DNA of 63,726 nt, counting the filler, from an uncultured archaeon (GTDB lineage: Archaea > Nanobdellota > Nanobdellia > Woesearchaeales > CAIVOO01), in NCBI GenBank assembly GCA_903842985.1. It is 6 parts of 6 records of this genome, joined end to end, with 100 filler letters (N's around TTAATTAATTAA, not from the genome) between each part and the next. Parts side by side here need not be neighbours in the genome. Positions count along the whole stretch, not along the records: positions 1 to 16,527 come from CAIMOB010000046.1; 5 more parts are not named here. One strand, 5' to 3'. Position numbers and translations under genes: made by a program. Below are positions 733 through 1,822 of this stretch, one piece after another (position 1 is the stretch's first letter; each line of letters starts with the position of its first letter). Under the pieces are notes generated by a model, which did not search any database, was not told the DNA's origin, and was given only the letters and a program-made list of their open reading frames with translations.

Positions 733-1572
733 TCAGCTCCATGTCCTTTCATACGAGCCGAGTATCCTGACTGTTATGCTGCCTTTCTCAAGCGCTTTAA
801 TTTTCTCTATGCATTTCTTGAACGCAGCAGAATCCATACTGCCTGCAATTTCAAGGTAAAACATCTGCGGCTCGCCGTTGCTCCTCAAGTTAACTTCATC
901 TATTGCAGGCCTCGAATGTATCTTCTCGATGTTCAATTCAATTCTGCCCAATAAGTCATGCAAAAGCCTTGGCCTGTCGATGCGGGGAGTTATTGCAACC
1001 ATTGTCAGCGGATTTTCCGGGACTTCGCTGCAGTAGTCCCTGGCAACAACATAAAAGTCAGTGAAGTTTTTTCTTCCGTGCTTCTTGTTTCCCACATCTT
1101 CTGCCAAAACAGCAATGTTTCCGAACGCCTCCTTCTTCGCTACCGCAAGCCCGCCGCCATTTACACATTCTTCTATTGCTTTTGAAGTGCTCGCAACAGG
1201 AACCTGCCGTGCATCTGGATAGTTTTGGAACAAATAATTTGAACACTGCGCCAGCGCCTTCGGATGCGAGTAGACCCTGCTGAAATCAGCGTTTCCGTTT
1301 TTCATCCCGATTGCAAACTTGACGTAAACTCTTTCTGCGCCGACAATCTTCAGATTGTTTTCATAAATCAAGTCGAGGCACTCCTGCACAAGCCCTTCAA
1401 GATAGTTGTAGCATGCCATCACCCCACGCTCTGCCTCTTCTTCAGCCACACTCCTTGCGACAGCTTCAATTGATTTTTCATCAATAAGCTCAGCTCCACT
1501 GAATTTTTTTGCAGCCATCTTCGCTGCATCCTCTGTGAACGTTCCTTTCGGTCCCAAATATGCGATTTTCAT
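733..1572 (-). CDS. pheA: Prephenate dehydratase (PDT + ACT-like domain)
   Basis: MKIAYLGPKGTFTE start, VYSHPKALAQC, VASTSKA, NFTDF, KIHSRP, ILGSY; GGAGGT RBS supports the start at 1572 rather than 1605. Confidence 0.92.
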   Translation of the reverse strand: MKIAYLGPKGTFTEDAAKMAAKKFSGAELIDEKSIEAVARSVAEEEAERGVMACYNYLEGLVQECLDLIYENNLKIVGAERVYVKFAIGMKNGNADFSRVYSHPKALAQCSNYLFQNYPDARQVPVASTSKAIEECVNGGGLAVAKKEAFGNIAVLAEDVGNKKHGRKNFTDFYVVARDYCSEVPENPLTMVAITPRIDRPRLLHDLLGRIELNIEKIHSRPAIDEVNLRSNGEPQMFYLEIAGSMDSAAFKKCIEKIKALEKGSITVRILGSYERTWS

Positions 1573-1594
1573 TTTGTTTACCTCCGTAAATTTG

Positions 1595-1654
1595 TCAAGA
1601 ACCAATGTGGTTCTTGAGCATGCTCAGAAACCGCAGGGTGCGGTTTCTGACATG
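1595..1654. repeat. Two abutting perfect hairpins in the pheA 5' leader
   Basis: TCAAGAACCA-ATG-TGGTTCTTGA (1595-1617) and TCAGAAACCGCA-GGG-TGCGGTTTCTGA (1624-1650), joined through GAGCATGCTC. Confidence 0.9.
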
Positions 1655-1742
1655 TTGAATCAGAACAGGCCCCTGTTTTCGCCGACGGCAGAGCGGTTTT
1701 TCAAACCAGCCGCGTTGAGAAAAAGCTTATGAGGGGCTGAAG

Positions 1743-1784
1743 CTAGCAAAAGAATTCAAAACCAAAAAATCTTGATTCAGCCAT
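1743..1784 (-). CDS. Putative Phe-rich leader peptide MAESRFFGFEFFC upstream of pheA
   Basis: ATG GCT GAA TCA AGA TTT TTT GGT TTT GAA TTC TTT TGC TAG; 5 of 13 codons are Phe; starts ~20 nt downstream of a TATA box. Confidence 0.7.
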   Translation of the reverse strand: MAESRFFGFEFFC

Positions 1785-1804
1785 ATTATCTCATATGTTT
1801 TGCT

Positions 1805-1822
1805 TATTTATAAATTTTTTGC
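1805..1822 (-). promoter_or_regulatory. Archaeal BRE/TATA promoter for the leader-pheA transcript
   Basis: Minus strand GCAAAAAA-TTTATAAATA, spaced as for a leaderless start at or near the leader ATG. Confidence 0.65.

Follow-up and report, generated by a model that had tools for sequence, protein, structure and literature searches.

In the E. coli pheL-pheA leader, the structure that forms after a short upstream open reading frame (uORF) depends on the position of the ribosome, with an intrinsic terminator and 2:3 and 3:4 helices as alternatives. In E. coli tnaC, a stalled ribosome masks a Rho loading site, and free Trp is sensed through the nascent peptide at the stop codon. Putative trp leaders were reportedly described in older work on Thermococcus and Methanothermobacter; in the open-access literature, we found no published archaeal leader-peptide attenuator and no motif of the kind described below. 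Here we analyze a 63,726-nt stretch of DNA (the window, consisting of contigs joined by N) from an uncultured Woesearchaeales archaeon (assembly GCA_903842985.1), in which a Phe-rich uORF and a stem with a GAA-containing tip loop (together referred to as the element) precede a prephenate dehydratase (PDT)-like gene. As judged from sequence comparison, the Phe uORF and GAA-loop stem are a real and conserved combination, found in about 20 related small-genome archaea.

The element resembles tnaC in the masking of a termination-factor site by the ribosome that we propose for it, and differs in being spaced on hungry codons and in the proposed factor, FttA/aCPSF1. As in pheL-pheA (described in PMC3082878), a short uORF with clustered Phe codons precedes a pheA-type gene. 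Unlike pheL-pheA, the element has an archaeal TATA promoter, a probably leaderless uORF, and no intrinsic terminator or 2:3/3:4 helices; its conserved structure is a single long stem whose GAA loop does not vary, and Rfam gave no match. Mycobacterial poly-cysteine short ORFs are also leaderless with cognate codons at the 3′ end, and are reported to work by Shine-Dalgarno (SD) sequestration (bioRxiv 10.1101/834739), whereas the archaeal element has no conserved SD switch. Likewise, the E. coli thrS operator and yeast HTS1 are reported to contain an mRNA hairpin with the cognate anticodon in a 7-nt loop (PMC9976931, PMC6542539); in contrast to these, the archaeal hairpin precedes a non-synthetase gene, lies far from the ribosome binding site, and is tied to a cognate-codon uORF. 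The element would thus work like a leader-peptide attenuator, but falls outside the pheL family, as it lacks the terminator and antiterminator and adds a conserved module. The GAA-loop stem appears to be new.

A Phe-rich uORF and a conserved GAA-loop stem

The studied genome (G000) is 879 kb and 92.65% complete, and carries the element on contig C46, where the minus-strand order is scpA, prefoldin, ftsY, a 255-nt gap, and the PF00800 gene. Neither pheS nor tRNA-Phe was matched in this assembly, which is therefore incomplete. The uORF, MAESRFFGFEFFC, has 13 codons with Phe at five of the last eight; the TATA box TTTATAAA stands behind an A-run 22 nt upstream of its ATG, and 170 nt separate its stop from the ATG (1572) of the PF00800 gene. 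An earlier note on this DNA had described this uORF (1784-1743, minus), its TATA box and the spacing correctly, and the motifs it quoted are all in place, namely a U-tract (1725), AAACCGC (1699 and 1646), GCGGUUU (1634), GGAGGU (1585), and two long-range pairings, of which that between CAGCCCCU and AGGGGCCUG proved to be a genuine covarying stem (P1). What it overlooked was the tip hairpin (1707-1695), the best conserved of all the features. What the sequences show is a uORF close to its promoter whose in-frame Phe codons lie at the 3′ end, followed at a set spacing by a covarying stem with the invariant GAA loop (Table 1).

Homologous uORFs have 12-17 codons, unrelated N-termini, and 3-6 Phe codons near the end (further peptides include MTRDSILKFVFSFF, MRAQSKQGFFSFFR, MSKSFTFKFNFYFY, and MRANSFFGFSYWF). 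Over 20 homologous leaders, Phe accounts for 84 of 256 in-frame codons vs. 57 of 472 off-frame triplets; mononucleotide shuffles of the leaders gave a mean of 29 Phe codons and a maximum of 43 in 5000, and genome-wide Phe usage is 4.5%. Frame 0 is the richest in Phe in 19 of the 20 leaders, and both codons are used (UUU 62, UUC 22), so the conserved Phe-rich uORF with synonymous variation, which the earlier note suggested looking for upstream of pheA-like genes at orthologous loci, was indeed found. As a control, 43 matches to the stem pattern in viral contigs were judged to be chance, and only one of them had an ORF with three Phe codons upstream. A U4 tract lies inside the uORF in 17/20 copies. 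A TATA match occurs 27-31 nt upstream of the uORF start in 16/20 homologues, the start having been picked by hand where several in-frame starts existed, and in 7/9 loci with a single possible start. This distance suggests leaderless translation, which is probable for the uORF.

After the uORF, the 20 intact copies share a layout of P1, a UAA/GAN-like AUAA/GAAA internal loop, a second helix (P2), a further, variable internal loop, and a tip of three pairs. Pair counts were taken from a loop-anchored script, with the register chosen to maximize pairing, because the model-fitted alignment A6 misregisters P1 and P2 (a control slid by +2 scored higher, 0.302 vs. 0.238) and RNAalifold retained only the tip hairpin. 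Counted in this way, 96% of cells are paired in P1 vs. 74% in shuffles, and 76% in P2 vs. 62%. The AUAA/GAAA sequence is kept in 15/20 copies on either side. Two tip pairs are GC in all 20 copies, the closing pair is UA in 16, CG in three and UG in one, and the loop reads CUGAAAA in 16 and UUGAAAA in four, i.e., YUGAAAA, which follows the Y32-U33-G34-A35-A36-A37-A38 pattern of the tRNA-Phe anticodon loop. This loop was not imposed by the search in the 16 copies found via the gene and the three found with a free triplet. The 13-mer class of the tip occurs once in the studied genome. The 5′ arm is 64% pyrimidine and the 3′ arm 33%, UUCU follows within 8 nt of P1 in 15/20 copies, and the 3′-side length from tip to internal loop is kept at 10-17 nt. 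Stem stability is marginal (folding z of -0.07 to -3.97 in seven folds). In the decayed copy L007, which is additional to the 20, the ATG is followed by an immediate stop, an alternative frame has no stop, and the loop lacks its G; broken uORF and mutated loop thus co-occur in this one case.

No Rfam leader family matched the element at gathering score, and this absence was the ground for rejecting SRP RNA. A T-box riboswitch was rejected for the same reason and because the conserved triplet is the anticodon rather than a specifier codon. A loop register like that of lambda boxB was dropped since covariation supports the 7-nt loop.

The two strong hairpins upstream of the PF00800 gene are a 60-nt insertion missing from the closest relatives, L002 and L033, in which the uORF and stem are nearly identical to those of the studied locus while synonymous sites of the flanking genes have diverged. 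Related single hairpins occur elsewhere in the studied genome (C14:93094, C38:8160, C41:21910), so the earlier caveat that these hairpins look like members of a dispersed repeat family and may have nothing to do with regulation was right. The folding z of -4.18 of the 241-nt leader arises from them, that of the conserved stem alone being -0.30. The repeat is a palindrome with TCAGAAA/TTTCTGA arms, single at the other sites and doubled at 1595-1654; a similar one lies upstream of thrS in another family of the order (L103). It looks like a repetitive extragenic palindromic (REP)-like mobile repeat.

Table 1. Positions of the leader features and the downstream gene in the window.
Feature	Position	Strand	Remarks
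B recognition element (BRE)-like A-run and TATA box	1807..1821	minus	Leader promoter directly after the ftsY stop; TATA TTTATAAA at 1814-1807
uORF MAESRFFGFEFFC with stop	1743..1784	minus	Phe codons at 1769-1764, 1760-1758, 1754-1749; three U4 tracts; probably leaderless
P1, 5′ strand	1732..1737	minus	Begins 11 nt past the last Phe codon
Internal loop AUAA/GAAA, 5′ side (C-AUAA)	1727..1731	minus	Conserved
P2, 5′ arm	1708..1726	minus	Pyrimidine-rich; includes the U-tract of the earlier note
Tip hairpin GGU-UUGAAAA-ACC	1695..1707	minus	7-nt loop, GAA at 1702-1700
P2, 3′ arm, and internal loop, 3′ side (GAAA)	1675..1694	minus	
P1, 3′ strand	1669..1674	minus	
UUCU directly after P1	1662..1665	minus	Candidate pause or cleavage point
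Inserted palindromic hairpin pair (1654-1619, 1617-1595)	1595..1654	.	Dispersed repeat, outside the conserved element
SD sequence GGAGGU of the downstream gene	1580..1585	minus	
PDT-like gene, 279 aa	733..1572	minus	PDT and ACT-type fold; NFTDF replaces TRF, HSRP replaces ESRP

Copies were collected starting from PDT genes. Among 401 genomes of the order, 67 had a match, and loci were fetched for the best 30 of these, together with 6 metagenome and 29 GTDB loci; the unpublished genomes G137, G212, and G214 count in the denominators only. By comparison of upstream regions, stand-alone archaeal PDT genes mostly have one common leader family, and PDT genes within aromatic operons sit directly after tyrA. 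A covariance model built from 12 copies matched 12/68 genomes, always immediately upstream of a PDT gene and including two new copies. A pattern with the loop triplet left free added three copies upstream of other genes. The GAA-fixed pattern, run on 401 genomes of the phylum, matched 11, comprising seven real copies (G283 being new) and four chance matches with no Phe uORF. Among 151 Aenigmatarchaeota genomes searched, one match is real and three weak ones were rejected. The final set of 20 intact copies spans 12 families of the order, a family belonging to a different order, and a single Aenigmatarchaeota genome; since individual genera supply three, four, and two of them, these copies represent about 14 independent lineages. 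Left out were L034, L037, L039, L040, L044, L050, L064, L066, and L214 as repeats and L036 as truncated. No second copy was found in the same genome. With the triplet free, the 401 genomes contained no version with another anticodon, as the non-GAA matches were about as frequent as those of a reversed-pattern control and, judged by eye, stemless.

The same gene subfamily and leader are carried by records titled Ca. Woesearchaeota, Nanoarchaeia, and Aenigmatarchaeota. Two records with Methanosarcinales titles (L040 and L050) also have the DPANN-type gene and leader; their titles are probably mislabelled. The leader recurs with the inserted hairpins in DNA contigs of one study, possibly from the same source sample. 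It was absent from all 20 bacterial members of the PDT subfamily. Three loci (L048, L203, and L205) have an aromatic uORF and no GAA stem, and four (L041, L193, L194, and L198) have neither. L048 is a minimal form with respect to U-tract masking, retaining the Phe uORF MLKYNKKFEFIFF with a short U-rich spacer in place of the stem.

Ribosome position, folding and the proposed output

The position of the stem is set relative to the last Phe codon, at the place where the 3′ edge of an archaeal ribosome would lie. Measured from that codon, the distance is 17-24 nt to the internal loop (standard deviation 1.9) and 10-17 nt to the start of P1; measured from the stop, the internal loop is 11-21 nt away (2.9). 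The spacer is shorter when codons separate the last Phe from the stop (Spearman -0.82, kin not being independent), and about 5 nt longer in Phe-stop than in Phe-X-stop copies. Haloferax ribosomes are reported to protect 15-16 nt from the P-site codon, which equals 9-10 nt past the A-site codon (PMC7261190). In folds with a 10-nt 3′ footprint, the median probability of P1 is 0.86-0.89 for a ribosome whose A site holds the last Phe codon, compared with 0.02 for one at the stop, and it drops by more than 0.3 in 14/20 copies.

Other switches were considered and rejected. A 3:4-type alternative hairpin gained more than 0.3 in probability in only 3/20 copies. Pairing of the loop with the Phe codons is no better than in shuffles (mean z +0.44 and +0.51 vs. 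two kinds of shuffle). Mean SD accessibility is 0.37 in free RNA, 0.48 with a stalled ribosome, and 0.45 with a ribosome at the stop. No intrinsic terminator (GC hairpin and U run) is present at 1500-1900 in the window, and the 20 copies contain no conserved terminator hairpin or SD-sequestering helix. As an RNA-only terminator is absent, FttA/aCPSF1 is the likeliest effector. Its KH domains are reported to bind U4 tracts (PMC8716108), and it is described as cleaving nascent RNA (PMC8716108, PMC13675443). Full-length FttA scored above the family cut-off in 4/5 genomes tested, including the studied one. The guess of the earlier note that a U-tract/FttA route would be more probable than a bacterial terminator is supported.

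We lean towards the interpretation that the element is a ribosome-sensed Phe attenuator with an inferred FttA/aCPSF1 output. Translation of the uORF would begin at the transcript 5′ end. Under Phe shortage, the ribosome would stall at a Phe codon occupying its A site and would cover the U-rich Phe codons, leaving the stem folded just beyond its 3′ edge and the pyrimidine-rich 5′ arm hidden, so that the polymerase would read through (ON). With ample Phe, the ribosome would reach the stop, melt the base of P1, and depart, exposing U-rich RNA on which FttA/aCPSF1 could act to terminate the transcript prematurely (OFF). Together, the GAA and AUAA/GAAA loops are likely to serve as a docking site at which a trans partner stabilizes one state, candidates being phenylalanyl-tRNA synthetase (PheRS) and the stalled ribosome.

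Downstream genes and other leaders in the order

The genes after the 20 copies comprise 16 PDT-like genes (some without ACT, one a fusion of PDT and prephenate dehydrogenase, PDH), one 3-deoxy-D-arabino-heptulosonate 7-phosphate (DAHP) synthase gene, and three ORFs of unassigned identity. Homologues of two of these three ORFs were searched for and not found, and the proteins of L213 and L216 are not clearly related. The window protein matches PF00800 (E 1.5e-37), and its model has the PDT fold (pLDDT 90, TM 0.82 to 3MWB). Its TRF motif, described as the catalytic motif of prephenate dehydratase (PMC13217925), reads TDF; in the aligned subfamily, the Thr and Phe are invariant and the Arg is replaced in 56/56 members. 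CM_2 was found in 1/5 genomes. The genes marked by the element are orphans in archaea that, as far as gene content can tell, are probably auxotrophic, and we would guess that the PDT-like genes serve prephenate or arogenate scavenging.

According to alignment A5, the TDF/HSRP PDT subfamily is common to DPANN archaea and to bacteria of scattered groups (Verrucomicrobiota, Lentisphaerae, Planctomycetota, Anaerolineae, and others), with the leader absent in the 20 bacterial loci within L043-L067. In the family of the studied genome, a short ACT-less PDT-like gene (L004:1279-1887, L005:1399-1998) faces two Lrp-type regulators and adjoins tyrS in one locus and a pyridoxal phosphate (PLP)-decarboxylase-like gene in the other. 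Elsewhere in the window, two 1.6-kb stretches on contig C50 (42605-44164 and 45105-46682) are 77% identical tandem paralogues.

Cognate leaders also occur before synthetase loci of the order (thrS 2/30, Val 1/30, Ile 2/30, Leu 0/9, pheS 0/30). These are leaderless cognate uORFs ending in runs of Thr (L090 and L102, thrS), Val (L242, valS), or Ile (L265 and L272, ileS), and in L242 the hairpin after the uORF folds over the SD. Plain-hairpin leaders were seen in 7/20 fetched aromatic-operon regions, and chorismate synthase was visible in the fetched region of 6/7 such operons (N-termini read by eye). Phe/Tyr/Trp-rich uORFs with plain hairpins head aromatic operons or PDT genes in L142, L143, L145, L148, L151, L152, L153, L203, and L205, the uORF of L143 having two Trp codons upstream of what look like trp genes. 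Like the element, the Thr/Val/Ile and aromatic-operon leaders combine a leaderless uORF of cognate codons with a hairpin soon after the stop; unlike it, they have plain hairpins of unrelated sequence, and model R1 fails to match them. Among genomes with full aromatic operons, many have pheS directly after pheA (L116, L117, L119, L121, L122, L128, L129, and L130), and the aromatic-operon leader may also control PheRS.

Alternative readings and significance

In favor of the Phe attenuator, the same layout occurs in 20 loci of about 14 lineages with differing neighbor genes, and also heads a DAHP synthase gene and a PDT-PDH fusion. Several observations weigh against it. The P1 switch comes from nearest-neighbor folding with an assumed footprint and non-canonical pairs ignored, is missing in 6/20 copies at 10 nt, and shifts with a 9- or 12-nt footprint. 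A U4 tract follows the stem in just 8/20 copies and 3/20 uORFs have none, so these tracts do not locate the termination site. So conserved a stem sequence is not required for attenuation, as plain hairpins serve the other leaders and L048 is stemless, and the model leaves the invariant loop unexplained. The advantage of induction by Phe starvation is hard to see as well, because chorismate synthase was matched in only 1/19 carrier genomes (1/12 at ≥90% completeness; 18/19 unmatched), the TRF arginine is missing in 15/16 element-linked PDTs, and three downstream ORFs are of unassigned identity. Of the earlier note's "Phe-biosynthesis enzyme", the PF00800 PDT gene stands, while the missing chorismate synthase and TRF Arg call for caution over the biosynthetic role. 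Its attenuation reading is partly supported, through the conserved Phe uORF before pheA-like genes, but the switch as it was drawn is not conserved.

The invariant loop is the starting point of two other explanations. In one, which we regard as unlikely, the element is a dual sensor whose tip mimics the tRNA-Phe anticodon and binds free PheRS when tRNA-Phe is charged (OFF), uncharged tRNA-Phe titrating PheRS away (ON), with the uORF as a second input. The loop fits Y32-U33-GAA-R37-A38, its C/U variation is typical of position 32, the closing pair covaries, and in the triplet-free scan of 401 genomes all matches with a paired stem carry GAA. GAA-containing loops are, however, commonplace in structured RNA. 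The element keeps G30-C40, which together with G34, A35, and A36 is a reported PheRS recognition element in other organisms (PMC9976931), and titration by uncharged tRNA has a described precedent (PMC6542539). In the two genomes compared, the host tRNA-Phe arm agrees with the element at 32-36, 38, and G30-C40 but differs at 37 and 31-39 (G37 and purine 31 vs. A37 and a pyrimidine). Moreover, the element occurs at none of 30 pheS loci, the loop has never been seen to vary with the amino acid, as none of the five Thr/Val/Ile leaders has a cognate anticodon-like loop, and PheRS binding could not simply block initiation because 20-119 nt separate the stem from the SD. Given these tRNA differences, the other leaders without cognate loops, and pheS without a leader, anticodon mimicry by the GAA loop is suggestive only. 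Alternatively, the stem might fold into the empty A site, where the GAA loop would pair in cis with the hungry UUU/UUC codon, compete with Phe-tRNA, and hold the ribosome in its stalled state. The spacing of the stem relative to the last Phe codon, a loop that is the exact cognate anticodon followed by a purine, the constrained 3′-side length of 10-17 nt, and a reported precedent for A-site docking by mRNA hairpins of the dnaX/HIV type (PMC7282821) suit this idea, but docking is described there as needing a stem 11-12 nt from the first P-site base, whereas here it lies 16-23 nt away when the A site holds the last Phe codon, and the L192 stem is much shorter; we consider it very unlikely.

Translational control, in which the uORF ribosome governs downstream SD access or re-initiation, has parallels in the leaderless mycobacterial poly-Cys ORFs (bioRxiv 10.1101/834739) and in the Val leader folded over its SD, and the P1 5′ strand (CUCUU/CCCCU) is weakly anti-SD-like. 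It is nonetheless quite unlikely, as the three SD accessibilities given above amount to no switch and the 20-119-nt spacer between P1 and the SD tolerates a 60-nt hairpin insertion. That the uORF-stem unit is autonomous (a trans-acting short RNA or peptide, or what remains of an aromatic operon since lost) and its downstream gene incidental would agree with its retention before three unrelated ORFs, two without homologues, with the lack of a PDT match in 4/5 genomes, and with the mostly absent chorismate synthase. This is highly improbable in our view, since 17/20 copies precede genes of the aromatic pathway, which belong to two enzyme families, the orientation is sense throughout and a start codon follows 29-129 nt downstream, the peptide N-termini are not conserved, and only a single copy was found per genome. 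Hardly tenable is the switch proposed in the earlier note, by which the leader, two AAACCGC copies, and two strong hairpins would re-pair to control RBS (ribosome binding site) access. Its pairings are present in this genome, where P1 has a probability of 0.24 in free RNA, but the AAACCGC competition fails because its GCGGUUU partner lies in the non-conserved insertion, both L002 and L033 have a broken leader-spacer helix and also lack the hairpins, and no change in SD accessibility is conserved.

Beyond the ribosome-sensed attenuator itself, a more elaborate version is conceivable though doubtful, namely a portable Phe sensor combining a uORF of hungry codons with a tRNA-Phe anticodon mimic, the latter being read by PheRS or the stalled ribosome, to gate FttA termination and induce scavenging genes in chorismate-less archaea. 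The element family offers a compact and alignable object for understanding how archaeal transcription-translation coupling and FttA/aCPSF1 could serve to regulate genes without Rho or terminator hairpins, and if its invariant loop with the cognate anticodon proves functional, tRNA charging would be read here in a new way. The cassette also flags an orphan non-canonical PDT subfamily and three unassigned proteins as Phe-linked in probable auxotrophs, and these genes provide a lead on the acquisition of aromatic amino acids by DPANN archaea.

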